Assembly: GCF_036321535.1 (NCBI RefSeq)
Contig: NC_087436.1
Span: 12,834,001 to 12,898,000 of the forward strand
Length of the DNA stretch: 64,000 nt
Direction of reading: 5' to 3'
Source: Camelus dromedarius
Taxonomy: Eukaryota
Position 1 is the stretch's first letter, and each line of letters opens with the position of its first letter. A model generated the notes under the pieces. It did not search any database. It had not been told where the DNA came from and saw only the letters and a program-made list of their open reading frames with translations. A program made the translations under genes and the position numbers. Positions 3,509 to 41,715 of this stretch are shown here, in pieces.

Positions 3509-3601
3509 GCCAATATCTGCCTTCATTTAATCTGGGCCATGCCTAACTTTATAAAGTTAAATGAGAGTAACTTCCTCCAACCAGCTTAATTTTTTTTTTA
3601 G

Positions 3602-4311
3602 ACTGTGATGATGTCCTTCAAACACATCCTTCAGGTGCCCAAAGTGGCATTTTCAATATCCAGCTACCGGGATCCAGTAAGATTTTTTCTGTTTATTGCG
3701 ATCAAGAGACCGGTTTGGGAGGATGGCTTTTGATCCAGCAAAGAATGGATGGATCATTGAATTTTAACCGGACCTGGCAAGACTACAAGAGAGGTTTCGG
3801 CAGCCTGAATGACAAGGGAGAAGGAGAATTCTGGCTAGGCAACGAATACCTCCACTTATTAACCCTGAAGGGCTCCACCCTTCGGGTTGAATTGGAAGAC
3901 TGGGCTGGGAACACGGCTTATGCAGAGTATCACTTGAGGGTAGGCTCTGAGGCAGAAGGCTATGCCTTGCAGGTCTCCTCCTATGAGGGCACAGCAGGTG
4001 ATGCTCTGATTGAGGGCTCGGTAGAGGAAGGGACAGAGTACACGTCTCATGCCCACATGCAGTTCAGCACCTTCGACAGGGACGCAGACAAGTGGGAAGA
4101 GAACTGTGCGGAAGTCTACGGAGGAGGCTGGTGGTACAACAACTGCCAAGCGGCCAATCTCAATGGCATCTACTACCATGGGGGCTCCTATGACCCCAGA
4201 AACAACAGTCCCTATGAGATTGAGAATGGGGTGGTCTGGGTGCCCTTCAGAGGTGAGGATTATTCCCTCAGGGCCGTTCGCATGAAACTCCGGCCACTGG
4301 TGACGCAATAG
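3602..4311 (+). CDS. FGA: Fibrinogen alpha-E exon 6 (C-terminal fibrinogen-related domain; fibrinogen-420 isoform)
   Basis: tttttag|AC; joining to G2847 gives DCDDVLQTHPSGAQSGIF...GGWLLIQQRMDGSLNFNRTW...MKLRPLVTQ*; NRT sequon retained. Confidence 0.96.
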
Positions 4312-15233: not shown

Positions 15234-15584
<351 letters not shown>

Positions 15585-15829
15585 TCACACTAGTACACAA
15601 AAGGCCTTCTCTGCCCTATAGCAAGAAAAGGAGAGAACTGGGCCTATGTGGCAAATTCATCTACATTCATTACTTTACCCTAAATTGATAGCTTTCAGAT
15701 CCTTTAGTGTTACAGATCTCTGGAAAATGAAATGGAGGTTTCAATATACACCAACTAATACAGAGATATAGGAATCTGTCTGAACACTCACTACTTAGGA
15801 AGTTACTGTGCTCGAATTCCATGTGTATC

Positions 15830-15995
15830 TCTTACAGTTGCATGACTTTGGGTAAATTACTTCATCTCTCTACACTTCATCTGTAAAATGAGGCTAAGAA
15901 TGGCAACCTTAGAGCAGAAATGCTTTAGAGGGATCCAGGAAGGGCTTGGTACAGGGGCTGGCACACAGGAAGTACCCAAGAAATGATGGTTATGT
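15830..15995 (+). mobile_element. MIR SINE remnant
   Basis: tgactttgggtaaattacttcatctctct...catctgtaaaatgagg MIR core. Confidence 0.65.
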
Positions 15996-16080
15996 TACTT
16001 TTGACATCCACTCCCATCAGTGGCTCCAAGTGGCAATATTAGCTTGGTGGAGGGAGCAGGAGGGAAGGGCCAGCACATAC

Positions 16081-16366
16081 CAGCCATCGTTGTCTCTGTC
16101 GTATGTGCTGAAGAACATGCTGTTGTGAATGGTCATGGTCCGGTTTTCTCCCACCAGTTGAGAAGCCCCTTCTAAGAGGGCATTGCCGGCTGTTCCCTTG
16201 TAGTTGCTCACTGACAGTTGGTATTTGTTGGCCTCGTTCTGTACAGTGAAACCTTCATAGATTGCCTTCACCGTGTCTCCTTTCCAGTCCTCCATTTCAA
16301 TCAAAAGCTTTGTGGGTCCCATTCTGGTAAGCTGGCTAATTTTTTCATTCCCAAGCCAGTACTCAC
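16081..16366 (-). CDS. FGB: Fibrinogen beta chain exon (human exon 7 equivalent)
   Basis: ttag|GT...TG|gtatgt, 286 nt; [13 protein letters not shown]...[23 protein letters not shown]. Confidence 0.97.
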
Positions 16367-16595
16367 CTAAAGGGAAAATAAAATAAAGTCTCGCTAAAAA
16401 TAAGAACTTTGGAAACCAAAAAATGCCTTTCTTCACTTATCATTGGCTTTTATACTCTTTTTATAAATTCTTCTTGACCTCCTAAGACTCCTAAAAACAG
16501 ACTGCTAATACTTTTCACAGTTTGAACACATTTTCAAATGGAAAAAAAAAAGTATTTGAAATAGAATGATTTTATTTTGTACTCCCAGTTTTTAC

Positions 16596-16721
16596 CTGGC
16601 ACACCACAGTATTTTTTCCCATCTGCATTGGTTGCAATATTTCCAAATCCTTGTCTGTATGGATCCCATTTCCTGCCAAAGTCAACACTACCATCTTGAC
16701 GGTTCTGAATTACTGTCCATC
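16596..16721 (-). CDS. FGB: Fibrinogen beta chain exon (human exon 6 equivalent)
   Basis: aaag|GA...CAG|gtaaaa, 126 nt; [21 protein letters not shown]. Confidence 0.96.
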
Positions 16722-17087
16722 CTTTGGTTGAAAGAAACAAAAACAGCACATATTATTAACCACTAACAAATAATGTCACTTTGAGGGGCATGTCTGAATT
16801 CCTTGTCCATTTAATTTAATGTATGTCACCTATATTTAGTGCTTCAAAAGAGATCCACTAAGAAAATAAACACGAGATGAAGACTCTTAGACTCTTTGGA
16901 AATTACAAGGGCTTTATCTTACCCCAAATTGTGAATCATAGATATTTTTAGAAGTTTAAAATAGCAAACTGAATTCCAAATCAAATAGCTCATTGCTTGT
17001 CATGTTAAAGCTAGGTTTTATTTCCTGGCATTTTTATATAATCAACATAATTTCAGCATAGTCGGTCAACAGGTAGCAAACACTTAC

Positions 17088-17201
17088 CTCCTCTTTCTGT
17101 TTTCATATCACAGTAGACTCTATACGGTTTGATAGCCCCTTCCGGCTGAATGAGATACATTTCAGATGTTTCACCTCCATTCCTGATAATTTCTTCACAT
17201 T
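17088..17201 (-). CDS. FGB: Fibrinogen beta chain exon (human exon 5 equivalent)
   Basis: gcag|AA...GAG|gtaagt, 114 nt; [19 protein letters not shown]. Confidence 0.96.
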
Positions 17202-17694
17202 CTGCAACCATAAGATAACATATTATATTTAGGGGCCACAACGTAATTACCTAGCCTGTAGTCACTCATTCTACAATATAACTGATTCCGTAGGACTTAG
17301 AAATGTTTTATTTTAGATATCTGAGAATACGTTTCAGAAAATCTTCCTTTTAGTGAAAATCAAGCTCGGATTTGAGGAACTCTGTGTGCCTAGGGGATGG
17401 AAAAAAAGCCCTTTTCCACCTTTTGGGTCCTGTGATATCTGTAAATTTCCAGCACACACAGGATGGAAAACTTCATTCCTACATCAATGGTTCCCCTGTC
17501 TGTCCAAGCAAGAGTGTATATTATACCCCTGTAGCTACCAATGTCATTGCACTGCTCCTACTCATCAAAAACTGGCGAAGGCATTAGGCTAAGTCAGAAC
17601 ACAGCATGCTGGGGATAGCTTCAGGACGCGCTGAAATGCCATTAGGATCTGTCGGGGAAAACCCACTGGACTTCCTTTAGTTCTCTTATTTTTA

Positions 17695-18030
<336 letters not shown>

Positions 18031-18879
18031 CTAAATGTATTCACCTGCAGAACTGTGATTTTGATTTTTCTGAGAATAAACTAACAGACACTGAATGATT
18101 ATCAGGAAGTCATGACACGCAGTTGTCCTTAGGAGAGATTATTTGGCCTATGGCACAAATCAACACACAGTCTAGCTACTAAAGTAGTAATTTACCTTAG
18201 ATTGAGCTAAAAATTAAGCCTAATAATAAACACAATAGGTTGATTATTTCTTTGGTGAGGAGAAAAGGAGAAAGCAGCATGTAGGCCTTCCATCTCAGAA
18301 GCTCAACACCTCACGGAGTGGATACGCTTGACTTACTTATCCATCTCACATAACTGCTTGAAATTTACAAGAGACATGCCATGATCCCTTTGAAAAATGT
18401 CCAAATTTGGATATGCTACTCCCTGAGACGCCTGTGCCAGGCTCACTCACTAGCTGATCCTGACCACCGAGCCAATCGCTCAAAATTCAGATCTCAAGTT
18501 TCAAAGATTAGGATTCTTATCTGCAATTCAGTTGAGTATATCATGGATGACCCGCTCATATTCAAAACCTCAAATGTTAAATCTATGAATGCTAAACTTT
18601 CACCCTGTCTTAGAGTCGCAGTTTCTTATAGACTAAAAATAAAGACTCGATGGTGAAATTTTTCCTAGACAGTCGCCCTCGCTGGTACCACACTGGGAAG
18701 AAGAGTTGAATAGTGCTTATCTGGGGGTTGCAGGTAAAGATGCCTCAGTGAGGACCTTAGGGTCACCAGGCTCATAACGACCTTCTTAGAAATTTGAATC
18801 TTCTCATAATTATGCATTCCCACAGTCTAACAGTTTCCATTTTATAGCAGAATCAAACAGAAAACACAAGGATATCTAC

Positions 18880-19063
18880 CTTTTACTCGCTTCTCCCTCT
18901 CTTTCCACATGTTTCTTAGCAGAGTCATGTACTGAAAGGTGGAAGAAGAGGTCTGGGAAACAGACTCTATATTGCTATTTAACTCATTTACACTGTTTTT
19001 GATGGGTCTTTCCTGTTTTAGCAAAGTGTCTTGCAACTGACATCCTGTAGGACACAGCACGCC
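18880..19063 (-). CDS. FGB: Fibrinogen beta chain exon (human exon 3 equivalent)
   Basis: gcag|GGC...AAG|gtagat, 184 nt; [22 protein letters not shown]. Confidence 0.97.
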
Positions 19064-19546
19064 CTGCAAAACAAAGAAAACAGCCAACATTAGGGGAAGG
19101 ATCTGGGTTATGGATATTGGTGAAAACAGCACAGAGTGAAAATTCAATGATATCATTTGCTGATATAAAAACTTGCAATTTGATGTCTTCATGTAGGACT
19201 AGAAGTTCTAGAGTCTTATCATATTCCTATGAAGATTAAAAATGATCCTTACCACAGAGGGTAGCTAGGCTATGAAAATATTACCATCTGAACAGGTGAA
19301 GTGGACAAAATACAAAGGGAAAGGCAATGCCACGTGTCCTAATCTGTAACCTTGGGCTCAGACCAGAGAAAACTAAAAAAACACCATTAACCCAAGGCCC
19401 AATAAGTTTATGTTTTGTATTTATATCCAAAAGAAACAAGTAACAGTGATGGTAACGTGGGTCAGCGCGACATCAGGAAGACGTGATGAATGCAAGCTTC
19501 CTTTGCCTGGAAGGCCCGGCCCTGCGAGAGACAGCAGTGTACCCAC

Positions 19547-19738
19547 CAGGTCGGGGTCGGCATGCAGACAGCCTCCAGCATCAGGGGGTTTTCTCTCCAC
19601 TTTCCTCTGGCTGGCAGCTACTTTGGGTGGACGAGGCTGATAGCCACCTTTGCTGATGGGAGGGGAGACAGGTCTCAGGCTGGGAGCTTCTTCCCTATTC
19701 CTGTCATAGGGTCGATGGCCGCGGGCATCCAGACGAAC
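19547..19738 (-). CDS. FGB: Fibrinogen beta chain exon (human exon 2 equivalent): thrombin site and knob B
   Basis: gaag|GTT...CTG|gtgggt, 192 nt; [23 protein letters not shown]...GCLHADPDL; not in the ORF track. Confidence 0.96.
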
Positions 19739-20279
19739 CTTCAGGGAACCATGCAGAAATAAAATGCAGTGTGTTACAGACGATTTGAGATGTAGCTATT
19801 CCAACACCCTCGTTCTACAACTTAGGTTATCAGACAACTGATGATTTCCTGAAGGTCCATCAACTGGTGAGTTGTCGTTGCTAAATCCATCGGATCCTGA
19901 GGCCTCTACAGTAACAGTAGAAAGAACAGCGCAAAAAGCCACTGTGCTTGAGGTAGTCTCTAAAAAGAGGACTTAAAATAAAGATGCATCCAACAATGAA
20001 AAACAACGACCTCAGATTCCTGAGTTCTATACACTGGAACGCACAATAGTCAGAAGTCTACACTGTCAGAGGGAATAAACATTCTCAAGCCACTTGGATT
20101 CCTAAATTCCTGTCATTATTTTTTCACTTCCAATTTTTATGAAATGATGATTAATTTGGCTAGCTCCTATATGATTATATTTAAGAGGCAACAAACACAG
20201 CTTTATTAAAAGTGGAATTTACCTGAGATTGATTTGTAATAAGACAACCACTGACTCTAACATGTCTAAAGAGGAATAA

Positions 20280-20480
20280 GGTGTTCTGGAGCCAGATGCT
20301 GGGTTTCAGGTCTTGACCCTACCACGTACTAGCTATAAAGACCTTAGGCATGTCACTTCACCTGTAAAGCAGGGATAATAATGGTATCTACCATATAAGA
20401 TGATCATAAGGATTAAATGACCTATTGCATATGACACCCTTAGAAGAGTACTTGGCACATGTTAATTATTCATTATTATT
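20280..20480 (+). mobile_element. MIR SINE remnant
   Basis: ctggagccaga...gaccttaggcatgtcactt...ggataataatggtatctacc...aggattaaatga. Confidence 0.65.
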
Positions 20481-22083
20481 TTTATTGCATTCACACTTAG
20501 ATGCTACAATGAATGGCTTCTCCACTATTAACTCCAGTCTTATCTTTATCATCTATAAACAAAATTGTTAAACCATTCTCATGAAATTTCTTACATGATT
20601 TCTTTATCAAAGGCCATGATTTTCTCATATTTCAAATAATTCTCAAGGCATGCACATTGCAATTAAAATTATATTTGCTAACTTACAAAATATTACATTA
20701 AAAGATAGTAAAGTAAGAAATATGCAATGCAATACAAAAGTGCCAGCTTGGATTAAACTGTATTATCATACGGTCTTTGTCAGTAATTACACCTTTGGGG
20801 GCTGAATTACAAATTAACAAATGACTAGATATGAAGCAGAGACTCAGCTCTCTAGCTGTTTCATGAGCCTAGAAGTCATCGAATGACTCTGGAATTTTGC
20901 AGTCATTTATTCAGTAGCTTACAATATTTTGTAACACTTGGTGGAAGAGTGCTAGGCTTTAAACCCAGGCGGATTAGTTCCAGATTCCCCTGCTTAACTG
21001 GTGAACTTAAAACTACATCTGTTATGTGTGACTGCAATTAAAAAAATGTATGAAGATTTAGGGAAAATAACATATTTCATACTGAAGACATGGTCCCAGC
21101 CAGAGATGATCTGTTCTAACAGGAATTTTATGAAATGTGACTCATCTGTTTATTACAAATCCAATTGTAACAGAAGAAAAATATATTCTTTTTATTTCAG
21201 AGTCCCATTAGAGAGGTAGCATGGATGATCTAACTTTACTAGAGAAAAGGAAACAAAAAATATTTAAAACAATTGTGTAGGTATTTAGGTTTATGAAGAA
21301 TACCGTCTCTGTGTATCAATTGGTGAGCAGAATGTAAAAATACTTAGTCAAGTACTTTATTCGGTCAAGTACTTTATAAAAGTTTACTCTTACACATTCT
21401 TTACATTTTTCTTTCCTAATCAATTAACCAGAGAACTATCTTTTTACATGTATAGTTTGATAATTAAAATATTTAGGTTCCATTCAAATGCAACATGTGA
21501 TCCGAAATGAATCTCTTCATTGAAGTATTACTGTGTCCTTTTATTTATAATGTGGCGATATTATGCAATGTACAAGAAATTTGATCAGGCGTCATCTGAT
21601 AATAAAATTAAAATTCTTTAAATATTCACTTCTCTGAGTGCATTTTTGTATTTTTGACATCTCCAAACCAACAGGAATAAATTAGCAAAGACAGTGCTTG
21701 AAGGAGAACTGTTTGCCAAAGGAATAAATTAAATGGAGCTCTATATTTCATAACCACTAATACTAACAATAAATAAATTTCTCATTTAAAAAAAAACACA
21801 GCTTTTAGTTTTCTATCGCCACACTTGATCTATTCTGCTTTTAGATATAGTATACAATTTTCATTCATAAATAGCCAGTAATTTCAGGGCCCATATACTA
21901 CCATCCTTCATGAAAGAGTCACCTAGATTCCACAGCTTTTTTCTTTAAAACACTGCTCTTTTATTATTTTACAGTCTGCAAAATTTTCAGAGTTTTGTTC
22001 TCATAACTGTCATAACGTATTGTTAGAACTAAATGAAAATCGTAGTACCCAGGCTAACAACAAGTGAGAAAAACACGTCTTAC

Positions 22084-22104
22084 CTTAACTCTGTCATCTT
22101 CTTC
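22084..22104 (-). CDS. FGB: FGB 21-nt microexon encoding EEDDRVK of fibrinopeptide B
   Basis: Long pyrimidine tract ...cttttattttcccag|GAA GAA GAT GAC AGA GTT AAG|gtaaga; phase 0-0; completes ATDYDE-EEDDRVK-VRLDAR. Confidence 0.9.
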
Positions 22105-22332
22105 CTGGGAAAATAAAAGTGACAAACCAGAAAACAAGAAATCATTATTTTGTTTTATATAAGAAATACTATGCAACATTCTTTTTTAAAAAAATGGGTC
22201 TTGAGATTAATCATTCAATCTCATAACTAAAATCAATGTTAATTTCATTAAAAATAAATACAAATATTATGCTTAGGTTATAGTTTATTTTAATCATGTT
22301 AGTAAGATATAATAATAACATTTAAAAGTTAC

Positions 22333-22404
22333 CTCGTCGTAGTCAGTGGCAGCTTGGGACTTAACAATAAAAATGCAAAATAGAAACAGTAATAGATGTT
22401 TCAT
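22333..22404 (-). CDS. FGB: Fibrinogen beta chain exon 1 (signal peptide + start of fibrinopeptide B)
   Basis: accATG MKHLLLFLFCIFIVKSQAATDYDE|gtaact. Confidence 0.95.
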
Positions 22405-22474
22405 GGTTTTAAAGTTTTGGAAGTTCCAAGAAGCCGTCCTTTGCTTGTGAACTTAACTGAGAGAGCCTCCAGCC

Positions 22475-22602
22475 TATATATATACCTGAATCCCCTGCTG
22501 GGTATGCCTTTAGAAGTGGGGACCTTCCTTAGTTAATGTTTAATTTTTTGGTTCACTTGTTGGCTGAACCATTTTATCCCTTAAGCAACATCTTCCCAGC
22601 AA
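22475..22602 (-). promoter_or_regulatory. FGB: FGB proximal promoter: TATA, HNF1 site, C/EBP site, IL-6/STAT3 response element
   Basis: TATATATATA 22475-22484; GTTAATGTTTAAT 22532-22544; TTGCTTAA (rc 22581-22588); CTGGGAA (rc 22593-22599); same order as in the known human FGB promoter. Confidence 0.85.
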
Positions 22603-28904: not shown

Positions 28905-29710
28905 AGTAGCGGAATCAGGTGACATGACTCAAGGCGGCGGCACCCGAAGGCGGCGGGGTGTGAGAGCCACGGCGCTCTCTCCCGATCCTCCCTAGAAAGA
29001 TTACCTAGGTTATCTAAAGAAAAAGCATTAACCCTCCAGGAAATACAGCACAACAACCATGTCCCTGAGCCAAAATATTTAAGGCTGAGAGTAAAGTAGA
29101 CAACTTTATCATCTCAAGACTTCCCCAGAAGCGGGGGAAACCTTCAGCCGCGCGACTCCACCAGCTTCCACCCGGCAGTCCCAAAACCCCGCCCCAGAGG
29201 CGGCCCCGGAGAGAAAGGCCCGCCCCCTGGCCCTTGGAGGCGGGCGGGTTACCAGCGCGCATGCGCAGCTTTACGTCACGTCCGGCGCCAAGGCGTCCAA
29301 TTCCGGAAGAAGCTGCACAGTGTGGCGGCGGTTTCTGTGTTGCTGATTAGTGTTTCTTCCTTGCCGGAGCGAGTGGGTAGACGGCGGCGTCATGGTCGAG
29401 GTAAAGTGACAGTTGAGTGCTCAGGGACCTTCTGCTTCTGGACTGTTTTTCTTTGGCGGCTGGCTTGGGGGATCGAGGGTGTTGGGAGTCTGGGGAGAGA
29501 AGCGGCTGCGAGCGGAGACTGGCCGAGGCCGGGTAGTCTCTTTTAAGGTTTTCAGGGAAGGAGAGAAGCCGGATGAGAGCTCGCGTTGGAGGTTGTGTCC
29601 GGGCTGGAAGCCTGAGATAATTTCTCCAGTTTTTGTTTGGCCCCTGGGCGCTGCCCTCCGAGGCGGGCCTTCGGGCGATGTTCGACCGCTTGTACTCGCA
29701 GCCTGCTGAG
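28905..29710 (+). promoter_or_regulatory. PLRG1: PLRG1 CpG-island promoter
   Basis: High CpG density; GC boxes; NRF1 GCGCATGCGC 29257-29266; CRE-like TTACGTCA 29271-29278; ETS TTCCGGAA 29301-29308. Confidence 0.9.
29392..29400 (+). CDS. PLRG1: Pleiotropic regulator 1 (Prp46 homolog) exon 1
   Basis: gtcATG GTC GAG|gtaaag (MVE). Confidence 0.92.
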
Positions 29711-29849
29711 TAGAGTCAGTGATTCTGTGTCCTAAAAGACTGGCGGCCTTTCTGTGGTCTTCAGTTTCTCTCCCAGCTCTTCCCAGGGAAAACCTGCCAT
29801 TCTTGAGTTTTTGCTTTTTCTATGGCTTGAACAACCGTTCTCCTAGCGA

Positions 29850-30560
29850 GCCTTGTTCGTCTTATCTGAGAAATCTTTGACTCTTGCCCAGGACCACTGC
29901 CATCATCTGAATTCAATCCACATCATCTTCCACCTGCTCTGATGCGTTAGCTCTTGGGTGATCTTTTTGCTTCCTTTTTTGTCACCTTCCCCCACCCCCA
30001 GTAAGTGATTTGTTTAAAACGTTAAGTTGATAAGGTTTTTCTTGCTTAAAACCCTTTAGTGGCCCCATGTAACTAGAGCAGAGATGCAGACCGTTGCAGT
30101 GGTATATTAAAAAAAAAAAAATCTGGACTTTGTCTCTTCTTGCAACCTCATCTTGCATCACAACCCACCATCTCCCCAAACATATACAACAACATATACA
30201 GTGCTGCAGCTTCTGGCATTATTTCAGCTACTGAACACCTTTGTACTTGCCATTTTCTCTCTACCTGGATTTTTCTTAGTCTATTTTGTGCAAGGCTAAC
30301 TCCCTTCTGCTTAAATACACCTCAGAGAGATCTTTCCTACCCACCCTGAGTTCTTTCTCTGATCTCTTTTTCGGCATCCTGCTTGTTTCCTTCATAGCAT
30401 TATCAAAATGTGGAGTTACTTTTCTTATTTTTATTCGTCTCTTTCCTCTTGAGCACAGAGACCAAGGCTGGCTTTTCATCATTTTGTTGTTAGCTTCTAG
30501 CACAATACCTGCCAGACAATTAGCAGAAGCTCAGTAATTATTTATTGAATAAGTGACTAA
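29850..30560 (-). mobile_element. L2 LINE remnant in PLRG1 intron 1
   Basis: ...ctagcacaatacctg...gctcagtaattatttattgaataagtga L2 terminus. Confidence 0.55.
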
Positions 30561-30781
30561 TCTCAGGCATCACTCAGTTGGTATACCTGGGGCTCTGGCC
30601 CAAGGGGAGCTTCCTCCTCTTCTCTGAACTTGACTCCTGTAGCTTGCTACAAATAGCTGTGGTGAGTGGTACAAAACTCTTTACATATTTATACATGTAA
30701 AGTATAACTAATTTGACTTTAATGTAGGTTATGGTATGTGTAATTTGTAGCTGGATATGTAATTACACTCTTTCTTTCTAG

Positions 30782-30888
30782 GAGGTACAGAAACATTCTG
30801 TGCACACACTTGTGTTCAGGTCATTGAAGAGGACACATGATATGTTTGTGGCTGATAATGGAAAGCCTGTGCCTTTGGATGAGGAGAG
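30782..30888 (+). CDS. PLRG1: PLRG1 exon 2
   Basis: ctag|GAG...AG|gtagga; [35 protein letters not shown]. Confidence 0.96.
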
Positions 30889-31911
30889 GTAGGAATAGTT
30901 CCTTTTCAATTGCTAGAATATTTGAACTTCTGATACTGGGGCAAGAGAGCAGGGAGAGGGGGACTTTAAAAGACTAGTAATACTAACTCATAGGATATCT
31001 ATTCAATATTGAGTGGTGTCTGGGCATAATTTAAGCTGATTTAACTTTTTTTGGCCTTATCTTTTACAATGAAAATCCCATTAATTAATTGCATTTTACA
31101 AGTACCCAGTAAGTAGGAGAGTCCCTTTTAGGTGTTATATTTTATAATCAATCACTTTGTATGTGCTTTCAGCTTCCTGCTGCTCTCAGAGCCTTGCTGA
31201 GCTGAAATTGTACCTGGCCAGTACCTCTACTCCCATCTTTTCTCGTTAGTATGATGAAGATTTTTGAGTGGTGGCATATTTTTGGTTCTACATCTCCAGC
31301 TCCAGTCTGGGATTGCATTATGTGCAGTGGTCCTTCTTTGTCCTTCACCTTTCTTTAAAAATCTACCTAATTCCTCAAATAAGCATTTATATTTAATTTA
31401 TAAAGTGGGCTATCCTTAAAAGTAACATAATAAGTGCATTTCTCTTTAAAATATTTAACTAAGTACTCGGATAAGTTCTAACTAATCTTTTTAGATATAT
31501 CCAGGAAAGGTTACTATAGAAATTTTTACTTTATTTTTATATTTAGACTTTTGAAGGAAAGTATATTGGCTTTGAAGTTTTTTAAAAGATATATTAGTTT
31601 CTATATATTTTAAAATCAGACACTTGATAAATCAACATGAAAGGTTTTATATAATTGGTTAACAAACTAAAATAGTACTTAGACTTAATGGATGCTGTGT
31701 GGTAGATTATGAATGAAAGTGTGGAAATGCACTTGGAAATTTTTTTAAATATTGTTTAACTTTAAAATTGTAATAGAAACTTTTTCTACATGATTAGGCA
31801 AACCTAAGCTATTTAAAAACTTGTGTCCTGGCTATCTGTGAATATATTGACATGGGTGAATATATTTAGAGTTCTCAAAGATACATTTTTATGTTTATAA
31901 TTTTTAAATAG

Positions 31912-32054
31912 TCACAAACGAAAAATGGCAATCAAGCTGCGTAATGAGTATGGTCCTGTGTTGCATATGCCTACTTCAAAAGAAAATTTTAAAGAGAAAG
32001 GCCCTCAGAATGCATCAGATTCATATGGACACAAACAGTATCCTGCCAATCAAG
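31912..32054 (+). CDS. PLRG1: PLRG1 exon 3
   Basis: atag|T...G|gtgaga; [24 protein letters not shown]...YPANQ. Confidence 0.96.
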
Positions 32055-32758
32055 GTGAGAATAATATTGTCAGAAATGTCACGATGTACATGTGAATTTT
32101 GAAAATAGAAAAATGGAATATCTCATTGGTGCTCCTCCTGGAAAGACTTCTTTGATCCACACCCTATTTACCAGCTATCCAGGTATCATAATGACAGTCT
32201 TGATTTCCTCATTGGAGTAGAGAGTGAGGTTACTGGTTGATGGATTTTTTTTTCCCTTGTAGGGAATTTTAAAACGGTGCTATAATGATGGCAGAAATTC
32301 TTAGGATATGGAGACAGTCGTAATGGAGACTAAAGGAAAAACTTCTAACCTTTGGGGAGACCTTCTGTCTATTTTCACTGTAATTCAGAAAGGTGATATC
32401 AAGTATTGAAATTGTAAGGAATAAAGATAATCCAAAATTCCACAGGAAAACCATTTTCTTGGAAGAATAACCATAGTGGTTTATTACTTGATAGGATGAC
32501 CTCTCTACACACCATTGCAATGTAGCAAATGTACAAGCTTTCTCGACATCACATTGGCAAATGGTCAGGGAAACAGCTGTGTCCATGGTCTTCAGAAGGC
32601 AAAACAAAAATGATCAACTTGCCTTTTTTATGAGGATTGGGTTTAATTTGGGAAATCCAGTTGATAATTTAATATTATTTAATCCATTAAAAGAGATGAT
32701 ACTTATATATAAGGTAGTTTTACCATTGATGAGTTTTCTCTCTGTCTTTTTCTAATAG

Positions 32759-32812
32759 GACAAGAAGTTGAATATTTGGTGACAGGTACACATCCATATC
32801 CACCAGGACCTG
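32759..32812 (+). CDS. PLRG1: PLRG1 exon 4
   Basis: atag|GA...G|gtaagt; [17 protein letters not shown]. Confidence 0.95.
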
Positions 32813-33674
32813 GTAAGTGAGCTGTTAACAATTGTCTTGTTGTTACATGTATTTCCATGAATGAGCCAACGGTGTGATTCCCATTACCTGTAAAATAATA
32901 AAGCTCAATAACCAGGCATCCAGGCTTAGTTTCTTAGGTGATAATTAACTAATACTTAATGTCACATGCATTCATTCAGCACACATTCTTAAGCGTTTTT
33001 TTTTTTTCAGGCACTTTGGTAGGAATTCAAAGATGGTAAGACTGTTCCAAGCTAAGACAAATTTTTTATCTGGAGGCTTAGCCAAGACACATAAATATCA
33101 CTAAGCTTATAAACATGTCAGAAGTGTTAGTAGAGAAGCAGGTATGATGGAAATGTGTCCTGGGCATGTTGTATGTACAGAGGAATTGGCACACAAGTGG
33201 AGTGGCCAGGATAATAGTAATAGGGTGGAGGGCAAAAAGCTTGGTATATCCGGGTTCTAGTAATTTTGGAGGACAGGATTCACTGTATTAGAAGTTCAAA
33301 TAAATTGGTACTTTTTGTAGTAATTTTCATTCACCCTTGGAAATATTCTAACTAATGTATTTAGGGGACAGCTTAATTTTTATATTTGAAGATAATATTC
33401 TAAGATAATAGAAATTGAACTTTACTATCTTGGACTGTGTAATACCAAACTGTTTTGATTAACTCAAATCTGAGATGTGTGTTGGGCAATATTTATTATA
33501 AAAAAGTTGGAAACAAAAGACCTTCAAAATAAAAATTTTTGTAGTATCACCACATGGTGATAATGACTATTACCTTTTTTGATATGTTTTCCTTCAGCGC
33601 TTTTTTGTAAATGCATGTAAATGAAAACAGAGATCATTACTAAAAGGAGTTAATTTTCTTTTTTAATTTAACAG

Positions 33675-33768
33675 GGGTTGCTTTGACAGCAGACACTAAG
33701 GTCCAGAGAATGCCAAGTGAGTCAGCCGCACAGTCCTTAGCTGTGGCCTTACCTACTTCTCAGACCAG
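33675..33768 (+). CDS. PLRG1: PLRG1 exon 5
   Basis: acag|GG...AG|gtagga; [30 protein letters not shown]. Confidence 0.95.
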
Positions 33769-33975
33769 GTAGGAAATATCACGCTTCTGTTTACAAAGGT
33801 TTTGAAAGCATAGTTTATTGTTCACATTTTTTCTCATTTTAAAATTGTGTTCCTTTGTAATTATGGATTACATGACACTTTACCAGTGCTTACAAAAATG
33901 TGTAAAGAGTCAGTTCTGCAGAGCACATGACTAGAGGCATTAGTTACTTCAAATATGATGTTTCTTTTGCCTCAG

Positions 33976-34057
33976 GGGTGATACAAATCGCAGTGCACCC
34001 GCCGGAGGTGAATACCGACATCCTGGGGCTTCCGACCGCGCACAGCCTGCAGGGGCA
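33976..34057 (+). CDS. PLRG1: PLRG1 exon 6
   Basis: tcag|G...GCA|gtaagt; [27 protein letters not shown]. Confidence 0.92.
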
Positions 34058-35404
34058 GTAAGTTTCCCTGTGCCAAATCACATCACGCTGCAGGTTGCTC
34101 ACTTTTGGAACATGTTGCCTGTGTCCGTTTATCCCAAGATTCTTACCTTAAATATTAAATAAATGAACATTTTCCTTGGTATTATTCAAGTAAATATCAG
34201 CCTAAGGTAATTGTTAATATGTCATAGCCCTAAAATTTAAGTTGCTAGTGAATTGATATATTTTCTAGAATTTAAAATTCTCTTAATTCTATTTTTGCTT
34301 GCACATTGGACATAATATTTATTTTGATGAAAATAATAGGATGTTGCTCTTTATTACCCACTATTAAAAATACAGGGAATGTTACTCAGAAACTTGTATT
34401 AGTATGTATTAGGTATAAAAGTCTTTTTTACTAAACTCTAAGTTGGTTTATACAGTTAGAGTTGAGTGCTATTAGTATCGTAATATTCGCAAGCTATGCA
34501 ATTAGTGCCTTATAAATGAGCATTTAGTAATGCATAAATTCATGTCTGTAAGTAAGTGGCGGCTACTGTTACTATTGCTGAAAGTATAGAAAGAATAACT
34601 GAAAATATGCAGTTTACTCGAAGTGCAGACTTTCCTTCCTCAGGTTAGTATGCAGTCACCTTATGAAGTGAGTGGATTGTAGTCCTGCCACGTTTCTTAA
34701 GCCTCCATTCGCAAGATCTGCCCAGGCTTGGGCTATGATGCAAACCTCTGGAGGGCAGGAGCTCTACGGGCTTTTCTGGATGGGTGGACAGGTGGCTGCC
34801 AACAGTAGACGGTTATATCGGCTCGGGTACCTTTTAAAATAGTACTTAGATATTCCTATGGGAGATAAATAGAAGGAACTCTCAGGCTGGCCTTTGTAAT
34901 ATTCAGTCAGTAATGTTAAAATATGACAGTGAGAGGCAGTGGCAGTAATCCAGTTACAGTTACTTAAGAGGACGAGCTTTCATGGAGCATTCACTCCTCT
35001 GTCAGTCTGCATAATGACTGTAGGAAGTAGGCGCTGTTACTTCTGTTTTACTAACAAGGCACAGAGATTACATAATTTTTACCCAAGGTCATTATTAGCT
35101 AGTAATTGGCAGAGCTGGGCTTTGGAGCCACGCACAGTGATAAGTGCTCTCAGTGCTAATGCTCTGCCTCCCTGAGATTTTTTTAAATTGATTTTTAAAA
35201 TTAAAATGAACATACAGAAAATACTGTTCTAATTAGAAGTCTTAGACTCATTTTCTAGGTATGCAAGTATTTTTCAGCTGTCCTTTCCTCTTTTAAGGAA
35301 AAAAACCTTCATAAATCCCTTCTTTGAATTTCCACTTTTGAACTGATAACAGGAGACCTTAGGTATGATCACTTTAATGTTAATGCAATCTGTTCCATAT
35401 CTAG

Positions 35405-35506
35405 GTTGTTATGGAAGGTGGCAATGCCAAGAACTCCGCCCTGATGGCTAAAAAAGCCCCTACAATGCCAAAACCCCAGTGGCACCCGCCATGGAAGCTC
35501 TACCGG
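35405..35506 (+). CDS. PLRG1: PLRG1 exon 7
   Basis: ctag|GTT...CGG|gtgagt; [34 protein letters not shown]. Confidence 0.95.
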
Positions 35507-36179
35507 GTGAGTGAATATGTATATTATTCCACTGCATGAAACATGATCACTGCTTTCCAGTTAAACAAGAGCGGAGAAATCGAATAAGGAGGAAAAGGAG
35601 TGAATATGAGAGCTGGAGAGCAATCTAGGTGGGATGGGGAAAGGGGCTTTAGCACTATCTTAAAAGATATTTTGCGAAAGAGACTTCAGTAAGTGGAAGC
35701 TATATTTGTATTCTGTGCAAAATGTTGGTAGACGGCTACTCCAGAGCAGATAAGATAAACTTAGGAAAGTTTGTGAGATGTTCTATATAAAGGCCAAGGG
35801 GACATTTCTTTGGCCCTACCAATTATCTTTTTAATTCTAGTAAATTAAAATGATTCAAAGTCATTTAGATTTACTAGATCTAAAATAAAATGTCTATAGT
35901 AGGAAAAGTGCAGCTATATAAATTATCACTCAATAAAACAGACTGTGAATTCATCCAGGTTGCACGTGTTAACACATGCCTTTTTGTTGCTGAGTCATAG
36001 TGTGTTGTAAGGATACACCACAGTTTGTGTATCCATTCACACATTGAAGATAATTTAGTACTTACTCTAAAATCTAATGGGGAGATAATCTCATAAACTT
36101 ATCATTTGAAGATGTGGGGGAGCAGTTCATACTGATTAAACTTTAGCCTGTGTGTGATGAGCCTGCCCTTTTAACACAG

Positions 36180-36272
36180 GTGATCAGTGGGCATCTTGGC
36201 TGGGTTCGATGCATTGCCGTGGAACCTGGAAATCAGTGGTTTGTTACTGGATCTGCTGACAGAACTATAAAG
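36180..36272 (+). CDS. PLRG1: PLRG1 exon 8 (WD40)
   Basis: acag|GTG...AAG|gtaata; [31 protein letters not shown]. Confidence 0.97.
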
Positions 36273-37012
36273 GTAATAAGGAAAGAAGAAAAAAATAAAC
36301 ATGACTTTGTGTTTACCTTGCAATTTTAATGTGTTTTAAGTTATTTCCTCGGGTGGCAATTGCTGTTGTAGTTCTCTGATTTCTTAACCTGAGTGTGGAG
36401 TAAAGTTTATCATCTATACCAGTTAAAAGTTCCACATAAATAGCTGTTTGAAAAATGGTATTTAAACAGTTTCTTTCCCAGACAGTACATGCTGTCTACA
36501 ACTAATTCCTTAATATTTAAGTTTTTTCCCCTTCTGGTTACGGAATTAAAGTGTGATTATCTGTAAAAAAAAATGTGAAAAATATAAAGAAGTATAAAAG
36601 AATATAGACCTATATGTAATCTTACCACTGTCAGGTATTTGAATGACTTTCTTTTTGACATTTATTTCTGTGTATATGTATCAGTGCATTTTCTTCTGAG
36701 CTTTTTTCCTGTGTGTACATAAATATGTATCTTTTTAAAATCATGTTTGATATGTAAATTTGTTCCCAGCTTTTTTTCACTTACATCAAAAGCATATTCC
36801 TGTGAAAAATCACATCTTTTTAAATGGTGCCGTAGTATTATATCATTTAGATATTCTATAATCTGTTTTCCTAATGTTGGACATTAAAGTTTTTTAGTTT
36901 CCTGATTGTCCCTATCATAAGTAATGCTGTAATTTACTCTACGCCTAAAGCTTTTTCTGTATTTCAAATTATTTTGTTATGATAGTTTCCCAGAAAAGGT
37001 GTTAGCAGGTCA

Positions 37013-37160
37013 CTTTTTTTTTTTTAGGTTTTTTTTTTGGTGGGGGGAGGTAATTAGGTTTATTTACTTGTTTATACTTTTTGAGGGAGGTATTGGGGAT
37101 TGAACCCAGAACCTCATGCATGCGAGGCACACACTCTACCATTGAGCTATATGCTCCCCA
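37013..37160 (-). mobile_element. tRNA-derived camelid SINE (vic-1 type)
   Basis: rc: ggggagcatatagctcaatggtagag (A box)...gggttcaatcccc (B box), A-rich tail; flanking caggtca repeat at 37006-37012 and 37164-37170. Confidence 0.85.
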
Positions 37161-37707
37161 CAACAGGTCAAATATTCTTGAAGTTGACCCCCAAAGTAAA
37201 AATCATTTTCCAAAATGGGTAAATTGATACTTGCAGCGTATGAGAGGGTTCTTTTCAGCAGATTGCTTGTGTTTCTTTAAAAATATCTACTAATGTGATA
37301 AGTGGAAGTGAATATCTAATCTTTTAAAAACTGTTTATATAAAATTTTGAGTGAGGTTGAACTTTCTGATACCTTTCTTTGCTACTTGCAGGTTTTTTTT
37401 TTTTAAGTTGATACCATCCTCGGCTGATTTAATACCTTAGTATTTATATTTTGCTCTTAATGATATCCTTTATATATTAAGAATAATAAGTTTTTGTCAT
37501 CTATGTGGATATTTTCTCAGTTTAAATATGCCTTTTAATTCTCCTTTTTTCCTGCCTTTATTTTTGCTGTTGGGGTCATTTTGCAAACTTTTATATTTGT
37601 ATATGTTTTTATATTTCACCTTTTGAAGACAGTTTTAACATCAAGAGTCTAAAAATTTGCTTTGGAATAATCAACAAGAAGAAAACTTGAGTATTCTTTG
37701 ATTGCAG

Positions 37708-37857
37708 ATCTGGGACTTGGCTAGTGGCAAGTTAAAACTGTCATTAACGGGGCACATCAGCACGGTGCGCGGTGTGATAGTGAGCACCCGGAGCCCGTAC
37801 CTCTTCTCCTGCGGGGAGGACAAACAGGTCAAATGCTGGGATCTTGAGTATAACAAG
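37708..37857 (+). CDS. PLRG1: PLRG1 exon 9 (WD40)
   Basis: gcag|ATC...AAG|gtaagc; [23 protein letters not shown]...CWDLEYNK. Confidence 0.97.
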
Positions 37858-37946
37858 GTAAGCATGGAGTGAAGGATTTAAAACGTTAGGAGCCCCTTTG
37901 CCCTTTCTCACTGTAGACATTTTAACTTTCCTTCTTTATCCGTTAG

Positions 37947-38048
37947 GTTATAAGGCACTACCACGGACACCTGAGTGCAGTGTATGGCTTGGATTTACAC
38001 CCAACAATCGACGTGCTGGTGACCTGTAGCCGAGATTCCACGGCACGG
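37947..38048 (+). CDS. PLRG1: PLRG1 exon 10 (WD40)
   Basis: ttag|GTT...CGG|gtaagt; [34 protein letters not shown]. Confidence 0.97.
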
Positions 38049-38567
38049 GTAAGTGGAACAGAGCTCTGTGCCAACCTGGGCACATACTGCATCTCACAGT
38101 GTGCTTGTTTGATACTGCAGTCATATATTGTTTGACAGAGAATTTAAAGGTAGGTACCTTGACTCATCAATACCCTAGTCTCAGTTTCTTGACTTGTATG
38201 TTTTTTCCACCTACATCTTCAGTTCTGTGGCCTCGCCATGTTTATCATTGGAGTGCCCCACCCCTGACACTCTCACGTTCCAGTCTGACCAGAGCTGTGG
38301 TCCATTGGCTGCTTCATTCAGTGGCCCCACTAGACCTGTTCTAGACAGTAGGTTTCCAGATCTTTTAGCTTGTTTCCCCCATTGGCTGCCTCCTGTCTCC
38401 ATTCCCCAGCCAGCTCACAGGTGACGAGTTCACGTAAGCACTTTCTTGGTCATAGTCAAACAGGCACACACCGTTGTCTGGTAAAGTCCCAGGTATGAAT
38501 TGAGCTAGTGACCTGCCTGAGATACGAACACCTGTTCTCTGACAGTATGTCTGTTGTATTTTTATAG

Positions 38568-38670
38568 ATTTGGGATGTGAGAACTAAAGCCAGTGTCCAC
38601 ACGTTATCTGGACATACTAATGCGGTTGCTACCGTGAGGTGTCAAGCTGCAGAACCACAAATTATTACTG
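38568..38670 (+). CDS. PLRG1: PLRG1 exon 11 (WD40)
   Basis: atag|ATT...G|gtacga; [34 protein letters not shown]. Confidence 0.97.
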
Positions 38671-39389
38671 GTACGATCGCTGCTTTCCAGGTTTACAGTA
38701 CACTCATATCAGTGCATTAAGGTTATGTGTATGCTTTTCATCTTTACCATGGCTCTGGCTTTGTGTTGGATATACAGTGTTTCTGTGTGCATTTGAAATG
38801 TATTGTGGTAACGTTCCATTCGATTGTTTTATCTCATACTTTTTACGTATCATAGGATACGTCCTATGTTGTATAGTGTAACGTCTGACTAGAAAATGGT
38901 GCCGTTAGATGCAGCTAAGCCTTGTTTTATGGTATCAGAATTACCAGTCGGGGAATTGAAGTTAGAAGACAAAATACCCTGAGCAGATTTGAGTCTTGTT
39001 TCGCTTCTAATAAGGCTAATAGCAATGGATATTTACTCTGAGATTAGAAGATTATCCCCTCCCTTGATGTGTTTTGGTAACTAAAAAATCATTAAAGTTT
39101 TTTCCTTCTTCTCTTTCAGGGGATAATACCATGCATTTGTTTTATTTGTTATTCACATTTGTTTTAGCTGTTCAGATGACAGGACAACACACGTTTATTA
39201 CATTTGTTTAACAATTAAATTTAAAATCAGCCCCAAACTTTGGAACTATAAAGCAATTAGCTAAGAGTTAATATGACTTTTACTTAGTATATATGCGTCA
39301 ATGGAAGAGCGCTTCAGATTTTATTATGTTTTAATTTTTGCCCTTTTTTGCATTTATGTTTTGGGGTTGTGTGTGTATCTCCCTTACAG

Positions 39390-39498
39390 GAAGCCATGAC
39401 ACTACAATACGATTATGGGATTTGGTGGCTGGAAAAACAAGAGTCACATTAACAAATCACAAAAAATCAGTCAGGGCTGTGGTTTTGCATCCAAGACA
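39390..39498 (+). CDS. PLRG1: PLRG1 exon 12 (WD40)
   Basis: acag|GA...CA|gtaagt; [35 protein letters not shown]. Confidence 0.97.
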
Positions 39499-39971
39499 GT
39501 AAGTATATTTCCCTAAGCAAAGTCCTTCCGTTGGTTCTAGGTATAGTATAGAAATCGCAACATTAGTGCTAGTTTGGTCATCATTTGGCCTGTGCCACTT
39601 AGGAACATGCATTTCTTTTATTTTCCCTGTGTAGTATTTTGCTTCGTGCCCTTTATAAGAGAAGGAAAACTTCCTACACCGTGAAAAATGGTAATGTCAA
39701 ATGAGATAATCTGAATAAATCATGATGAAAAGCTGCGTGTCATAATAGAAGCTAATAGTAGCTAGATTTAGTGTTTTGGAAATAAATGGTAGTAGACACT
39801 GAGATATAAGTAGAATGGTTAATTTTTAAGGAGGAAGGTAGTATGCGTAGGGGAAAAAAGTAGTAGGAATCATGAACAGTGTAGTCAGGGTATCCAGAGA
39901 GATGGAGCGCAGCATCGCCTCCTGTCGTCTGTGACACCGCGTCACCCGGCACTTCTCTGGTCACATTCATG

Positions 39972-40116
39972 TCTTCTGTCCTCCTCCCTCTCCTGCTCTC
40001 CCTTACCTTTATTCCCTCTCTCCTTCTTCCTCCTTTTCTCTCTCCCTCTTGCCCTCTCTCTCTTTCCTTTTCTCCATTTCTTTTTCTCTCTCTCTCTGGC
40101 TTTTCTCTTGCTCTCA
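39972..40116. repeat. CT-rich low-complexity tract in PLRG1 intron 12
   Basis: Almost pure pyrimidine on the + strand. Confidence 0.85.
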
Positions 40117-40444
40117 CCAAAATAGTTACATCACCCCTCGCTCTTTATGTGAGTTTAAGGGTTTGCACATTTATTGCTTTAGCTCAGTGTTGAGCACTGG
40201 GGAAATGAAAGAAGAATAAAACTTTAATCTAGGGCTTAGAATACATTTAAAATAATTTGAAAATCTGGTTTAACTTGGAACAGATGTCGATGTTTTTCTC
40301 TCTTGGTATGACAATAATATTTTACTGAAACTACATAGATCATGACTACAGATGCAAAATACAACCATAATAAGCATTTTTAAAATCTGACATTTTATTT
40401 AGCTTGGTTTACTTTGTCATTAATTCTTTTTCATCTTATTTCAG

Positions 40445-40584
40445 TTACACGTTTGCATCTGGTTCTCCAGATAACATAAAACAGTGGAAATTCCCCGATG
40501 GAAGTTTCATTCAAAATCTTTCTGGTCATAATGCTATTATTAACACATTGACAGTAAATTCTGATGGGGTGCTTGTATCTGGAG
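40445..40584 (+). CDS. PLRG1: PLRG1 exon 13 (WD40)
   Basis: tcag|T...G|gtaaaa; [46 protein letters not shown]. Confidence 0.97.
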
Positions 40585-41072
40585 GTAAAATAAGATTTTT
40601 ATGATAGATATGTTTTAGTCCGTCATTTTTTTCTTTTAGTGAGTGAGTAAAATTCCTAAGTCATTATACTTAAGTATTATAGTAGAACTTGCCTTTTCAC
40701 TGTGTGTTTGAATGTTCATGTGTGTGTTCATGCATATTCCTAGTACCTGTAGCATATTTCATGGCTTAGCTCTCTTTAAGTTCTCACATTGATAAATCTA
40801 AGGGGTTTATGCCAGAAATCACCCAAAGTTGGCTTGTATATTCTAGAAATGAATGTCATCTTGTGGTGCTTCTTGAGATATGTAACAAATTCTGAATTGA
40901 GCACAAATGAAAGTCAACTGATACTAAGAGAAACGAGTGCCTGCGTCTTCCGTATCTTTATAACTGTAGTTATTGGCACAGTGCTTGGCTAATGATTGGT
41001 GCTTATTAATAAATGTTCATCAGACTGACTCATTAAAGGCTTACCAAGTTTAATTGTATCTTTCCCTTTAAG

Positions 41073-41266
41073 CTGACAATGGCACTATGCATCTTTGGGA
41101 CTGGAGAACTGGCTACAATTTCCAGAGAGTTCATGCCGCGGTGCAGCCTGGGTCCTTGGACAGTGAATCAGGAATATTTGCTTGTGCTTTTGATCAGTCT
41201 GAGAGTCGGTTACTAACAGCTGAAGCTGATAAAACCATCAAAGTGTACAGAGAGGATGATACAGCA
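41073..41266 (+). CDS. PLRG1: PLRG1 exon 14 (WD40)
   Basis: taag|CT...GCA|gtaagt; [17 protein letters not shown]...[12 protein letters not shown]. Confidence 0.97.
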
Positions 41267-41715
41267 GTAAGTTCCCTATTTCATACACATTTTAAAGGAA
41301 AGTAAATGTCATGCCAATTTTGCATGTGTTTTCTCATTTTAGAGTTAACTGTAATTATCAAAGGGAAAATAATCTTCATAGTAGTAAAGTATTTCTCATC
41401 TTGAGTAGTGTCTGCTCATAGATTTCTGTACTGCTTTCATTGATGCCAGCAATCCATAGATAGTTTTAATTTTATCTCAGCTTTCCTTGTTAAAGTTACT
41501 GGGAAAATCGTACACTGAGAGTAACGGCGAGTAAGTGGATTGCTATGCAGATTAATTCTAGAATCATAAACTTTGGTGTTATTAGAATATCTAAATAGCA
41601 ATTTTATTTAAGATGAAAAACCATAAACAATTAATAGTTGAATGAATTCATCCTTCATTAGATTCCAATAATGTCAAAAGTTGGTCACCTATTCTTAAAA
41701 AGAACTGCTAAATAT

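Follow-up and report, generated by a model that had tools for sequence, protein, structure and literature searches.

The window analysed is a stretch of 64,000 nucleotides of Camelus dromedarius DNA (NCBI RefSeq assembly GCF_036321535.1, contig NC_087436.1, positions 12,834,001 to 12,898,000 of the forward strand). It contains the fibrinogen beta gene FGB at 15234–22404 on the minus strand, a locus that was found once in the genome by a genome search. A spliced search of the window recovered 484 of the 484 residues of the dromedary FGB model XP_010978619.1/KAB1282287.1 (P0057) in nine exons, the second of which is a microexon. The features of the gene, listed in the direction of transcription, are as follows.

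22333–22404, minus strand: coding part of FGB exon 1, 24 codons for the signal peptide and the first fibrinopeptide B residues, ending in phase 0 with the donor GAG/GTAACT
22105–22168, minus strand: acceptor region of the microexon, with an AG-free zone of 62 nt, 13 pyrimidines in 15 positions and a CAG end, its last 20 nt being free of TGC
22084–22104, minus strand: FGB microexon, 21 nt, encoding EEDDRVK, phase 0-0, identified by the spliced protein match and an RNA contig
22078–22083, minus strand: donor of the microexon, GTAAGA
19547–19738, minus strand: next FGB exon, the equivalent of human exon 2, with the last six fibrinopeptide B residues, the Arg-Gly thrombin site and the GHRP knob
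19063–18880, 17975–17748, 17201–17088, 16721–16596, 16366–16081 and 15465–15234, minus strand: the six remaining FGB coding exons, from an exact spliced match

The exon at 19738–19547 has a PDB match to human fibrinogen beta (entry 3GHG, chain B; E value 4e-26), the gene carries the Arg-Gly-His-Arg thrombin site and its homologues bear PF08702 and PF00147. At 22405–22446 (minus strand) the upstream in-frame ATG of other mammals, which gives a longer leader with an MVSWNF-type start, is ACG; camel FGB therefore begins at the later Met (22404), as it does in the camel model. Elsewhere in the window, on the plus strand, 1428–2888 is the large exon of FGA, with tandem 13-residue (39 nt) alpha-C repeats at about 1760–2160 that are ordinary for this gene, and 3571–4308 is the FGA extended-alpha (fibrinogen-like domain) exon, open and with its frame intact. 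WD40-type exons and a GC-rich start were noted at about 29100–41300 (plus strand); these look like PLRG1, the usual neighbour of FGB.

The microexon starts 228 nt past the exon 1 donor (22333) and ends 2345 nt ahead of the next exon (19738), and both flanking junctions are in phase 0. With 21 nt between CAG and GTAAGA it falls within the definition of a coding microexon, an internal exon of at most 27 nt between AG and GT. Purines make up 17 of its 21 bases. Its donor, AAG/GTAAGA, agrees with the consensus at 8 of 9 positions and is joint best among the eight FGB donors. The symmetric phase, the strong acceptor and donor, the EEDDRVK content and the location in intron 1 had been given in a preliminary description of the sequence, and all were confirmed. 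Candidate exons in the 2594 nt interval were defined as frame-preserving, stop-free AG..GT segments of 3–51 nt; the microexon was the only one of 81 to pass all of the splice thresholds (donor ≥7/9, pyrimidines ≥12/15 and YAG). A passing candidate was present in 12 of 300 dinucleotide shuffles, or in one of 300 with pyrimidines at ≥13/15, figures that flatter the microexon and are a rough guide only, the cut-offs having been chosen with the microexon already known. A repeat search of 19500–22500 gave short chance repeats only and no sign of an origin of the microexon by local duplication.

The 484-residue camel model can be encoded by the window solely by way of the 21 nt exon: its N-terminus consists of exon 1, EEDDRVK and the next exon, and is not the skipped form. 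The model and the window are identical in protein, EEDDRVK included, in a comparison made with the protein and not with the exon table of the record. The camel microexon is already known as annotation, being present in the public dromedary FGB model, as the preliminary description had surmised for automated annotations.

EEDDRVK corresponds to precursor residues 25–31, which are P13–P7 ahead of the thrombin-cut Arg37. Camel fibrinopeptide B counted from Gln17 has 21 residues with the microexon and 14 without it; counted from Ala19 it has 19 and 12, respectively. The microexon is coding and adds seven residues, which supports the earlier proposal that it builds the long fibrinopeptide B. The accompanying statement that skipping would give the human length of 14 residues is correct from Gln17 but not from Ala19. 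The computed effect of the microexon is a change in the net charge of the peptide from −2 to −4 and an increase in the acidic residues within five positions of the Tyr from 3 to 6. Thrombin cuts off fibrinopeptide B, which exposes the GHRP knob, and the peptide is absent from fibrin; many fibrinopeptides B are sulfated on tyrosine. Any effect of the seven residues on clotting is likely to be small, because the peptide is cut away and humans manage without the block. None of six matches among solved structures shows an ungulate fibrinopeptide B, and a camel fragment search (at least 30 residues) returned five matches, none of them across the microexon junction.

Four contig sets (X1, X3, X7 and X8) were compared with positions 18800–22560 of the window. 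A 142 nt contig of run X3 (record 12, depth 438.6) agrees with exon 1 at every position that it covers and runs on into the first 12 bases of the microexon. This 12-mer occurs once on the minus strand of the window and nowhere on the plus strand, and differs from the start of the intron and from that of the next exon; the contig is spliced and hence does not derive from genomic DNA. Run X3 is labelled liver RNA-seq, its kind being a guess (no listed run is on record as RNA), and its sequence is camel-type. The other loose end of the contig has the same junction in the opposite direction, which is probably a fold-back artefact. The junction 22333>22104, which had been suggested as a check in liver RNA, was accordingly found in one of the four runs; X1, X7 and X8 hold intron or unspliced pieces only. 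Inclusion of the microexon on its upstream side is therefore observed in camel-type RNA. Spliced contig cover of 19547–19738 is present in none of the four runs, which can result from the filter; contigs drop rare forms, and the joints table of the comparison is empty. As the downstream exon has no spliced cover, the missing skip junction is no evidence against skipping. Pieces of FGB intron 1 (19660–22039) are present in RNA-type contigs of X1, X3, X7 and X8; loose ends of poly(T)/poly(A) occur at 21551 and 21248, and in X1 a contig end at 20513 resembles an adaptor. These intron pieces and their ends probably represent pre-mRNA and internal priming. Letter differences common to runs at 21700, 21784 and 21852 have the look of allelic variation or of a sister species.

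The distribution of a block of about seven residues at the camel microexon junction was analysed in FGB proteins of other species. Mammals were counted in 121 rows from 237 FGB proteins obtained by two protein searches and three cluster look-ups, after removal of non-mammals, duplicate isoforms, fragments and models that start aberrantly. Length was taken as the distance between the cysteine of the signal peptide and the arginine at the cleavage site, and proteins with a value of 24 or more were classed as the long form. The lengths peak at 20 (27 rows) and at 27–28 (47 rows), about seven residues apart; mouse is intermediate at 23. The long form was counted as follows.

Cetartiodactyls: 10 of 19
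Perissodactyls: 2 of 3
Carnivores and pangolin: 4 of 6
Bats: 21 of 23
Afrotherians: 3 of 7
Marsupials: 7 of 12, or 8 by eye (Dromiciops was mis-measured via a second cysteine)
Monotremes: 2 of 2
Non-simian primates: 1 of 4 (mouse lemur)
Glires: 3 of 14 (two deer mice and a pocket gopher)
Simians: 0 of 13
Logan transcript-type proteins: 17 of 18, the exception being mouse-like; the 17 are from bats and a pangolin, few species that are not independent

The block occurs in FGB of many ungulates, whales, carnivores, bats, elephants, sirenians, mouse lemur, deer mice, marsupials and monotremes. At the protein level it is thus found at the junction across the outgroups (both monotremes) and is absent from all 13 simians. 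Its sequences are not alignable across distant groups and diverge widely outside Laurasiatheria. Seventeen same-species or close pairs were hand-picked because they differ; ten of these differ by exactly seven residues at the junction (yak, deer mouse, porpoises, rorquals, Molossus, Miniopterus, serow/goat, puma/jaguar, the wall lizard Podarcis and aye-aye/mouse lemur) and the other seven by 2, 5, 5, 5, 6, 6 or 9 residues. The 20-residue fibrinopeptide B entries P68116/P68117, which carry the name Ovis aries, and P14538, which carries the name Elephas, are identical to long forms with the block included. Entries of this type are derived from direct peptide sequencing, so that block-equivalent residues would be present in the plasma protein of both sheep and elephant. 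An exact look-up of a 21-residue cattle peptide gave no entry in the protein collection. In genomic read-through ORFs of several mammals (P0007, P0008, P0021, P0043, P0279 and P0280) the downstream exon starts six residues before the cleavage site, and the Miniopterus model P0100 reads into an intron start that resembles that of the window; both boundaries flanking the microexon therefore look conserved. Outside mammals, same-species pairs differ at the junction by seven residues in Eleutherodactylus and by six in Acipenser (sturgeon), one of the Perca models seemingly reads into the intron, and the 15 bird proteins among the cluster members listed include no pair with and without the block. 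A 21-base exon 1 pattern was used to look for intron 1 of other mammals in metagenome contigs, and all six loci match only at or beside the pattern and are unrelated. Fibrinogen beta fragments listed under Klebsiella pneumoniae and Clostridioides difficile (P0093, P0194 and P0205) cluster with bat, marsupial and bird FGB and are likely to be contamination or mislabelling.

Some short models can be annotation misses, as is seen in Miniopterus, where four Logan proteins contain the block but in the two RefSeq models it is either absent or replaced by a run into the intron. Laurasiatherian models that are about seven residues shorter than those of close relatives (P0004, P0016, P0019, P0039, P0059–P0062, P0065, P0066, P0099, P0111 and P0112) are probable misses of the microexon, in a class that protein data alone cannot separate from true exon losses. 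RefSeq lists long and short isoforms, all of them computer predictions, for Peromyscus californicus (X1/X2), Trichosurus (X1/X2) and Gracilinanus (X1–X4). The Gracilinanus agilis models P0186, P0191, P0192 and P0196 have either no block or one of three different blocks (5, 6 and 9 residues) at the same junction, which are either several alternative microexons or guesses of the predictor.

The camel microexon is real, and is most probably a normally included, frame-preserving spacer exon that is old and has been lost in simians and some other lineages. Strong splice sites on both sides would lead to its splicing between exon 1 and the thrombin-site exon, where its seven mostly acidic residues (P13–P7) would produce a longer and more acidic peptide masking the B knob. 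Since the peptide is released by thrombin, the fibrin chain would be unchanged by the microexon, and the symmetric phase together with the discarded peptide would render loss of the exon harmless. Constitutive use is inferred from the strong sites, the lack of TGC by the acceptor and the presence of the block in all 17 non-rodent transcript-type proteins.

On the evidence of protein models, in which homology of the block is judged by its position and length, mammals probably had the exon from the start and simians and some other groups have lost it, a history that would explain most of the split between long and short fibrinopeptides B. One old origin followed by several losses is the more economical account because the block is present in monotremes, marsupials, afrotherians, laurasiatherians, a lemur and some rodents. 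The preliminary description had attributed much of the variation in fibrinopeptide B length to gain or loss of a microexon; the two length groups about seven residues apart agree with this, although loss would be favoured over gain. Its view of the long form as an ungulate feature was too narrow, as every major mammalian group except simians has the block in the rows examined, and on the same grounds a gain specific to ungulates was rejected. The pairs of models with and without the block in lizard, frog, sturgeon and perch are the reason for considering a still greater age. We hold it to be slightly short of an even chance that the exon is older than mammals, perhaps of bony-vertebrate age, and has been lost repeatedly; the seven-residue gap between human and ungulates would then be one exon loss, intron 1 of human FGB may still contain a decayed copy within its first few hundred bases, and some rodents and marsupials may be midway, with the exon spliced as a cassette.

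A separate history, in which the camel exon is real, the human eight-exon gene is ancestral and each of the various groups acquired its long form independently, through exonisation or exon extension, is considered unlikely. It would account for the little that the afrotherian, deer mouse and marsupial blocks share with EEDDRVK, for marsupial block lengths that span 5 to 10 and for the lack of a with/without pair among the 15 birds, and acidic low-complexity peptides tolerate insertions. However, monotremes, afrotherians, laurasiatherians, a lemur and rodents have their blocks at the same junction and, for the most part, of the same length, pairs from the same species differ by seven residues in Podarcis and Eleutherodactylus and by six in sturgeon, and a single origin with several losses requires fewer events.

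Less probable again is a real exon that is a regulated cassette, with the liver making both long and short fibrinopeptide B and so tuning charge, sulfation context or thrombin release. The phase symmetry permits skipping, which would shift the net charge from −4 to −2 and the acidic residues within five positions of the Tyr from 6 to 3, and one sturgeon-type Logan protein (P0248) is without the block. The splice sites of the microexon are nevertheless among the strongest of the gene, with no TGC near the acceptor, the single camel model retrieved has the block, and so do all 17 Logan proteins from bats and a pangolin, a sample of few species that are not independent. The isoforms with and without the block in P. 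californicus, Trichosurus and Gracilinanus keep the idea alive for those species, but these pairs are computer models. Alternative skipping, as put forward earlier, is hence unsupported for the camel, all 17 of the non-rodent transcript-derived proteins having the block. Vertebrate neural microexons of 3–27 nt are regulated by SRRM3/4 and have a TGC motif just upstream of the acceptor; regulation of this type was rejected for the camel exon, in which TGC is absent from the last 20 nt before the acceptor. That the microexon is a chance pseudo-exon, annotated only via a predictor guided by related proteins, is extremely improbable and was rejected: 12 of 300 shuffles give a similar candidate at the looser cut-offs and the joints table is empty, but the RNA contig joins exon 1 to the microexon, with neither the intron start nor the next-exon start at the junction, and the sheep and elephant peptide-level entries contain the equivalent block.

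As the exon is already annotated, it carries little weight as a discovery. The comparative picture, if true, would mean that one exon loss explains why a textbook example of a fast-evolving peptide falls into two lengths, and the microexon would be a clean case for studying the decay of a dispensable symmetric exon. Models of whale, deer, cat, bat and yak recurrently omit exactly seven residues, an annotation error by which species identification from peptides and codon alignments would be misled. Knowledge of long artiodactyl fibrinopeptides goes back to the 1960s (PMC2912333); in that paper Doolittle (2010) gives fibrinopeptides as mostly 16–21 residues in length and cites the 1967 sequencing of the dromedary peptide, and the words exon, intron and deletion do not occur. 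Our literature search found no paper that ties fibrinopeptide B length to a microexon, a weak negative for a search with the literature of the 1960s–80s and subscription literature outside its scope. The evolutionary history proposed here (an old spacer exon, its loss in simians and its frequent omission by predictors), which is plausible on the protein models, is possibly unpublished.

The long fibrinopeptides B of artiodactyls and elephant (P68116/P68117, P14538 and Doolittle's series) have a block of the same position and length as the camel exon. Human FGB resembles the camel gene in its signal-peptide exon, in a downstream exon that starts six residues before the cleavage Arg and in the GHRP knob. 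It differs in its 14-residue fibrinopeptide B, which is without the seven-residue block, and in having eight exons against the nine coding exons of the camel; the human number, as stated in the preliminary description, is borne out by PMC6178649. The camel exon is like neural microexons in its size, in being a multiple of three and in the long AG-free zone ahead of its acceptor, but unlike them it belongs to a liver gene, has strong splice sites, lacks TGC and encodes part of a discarded activation peptide.
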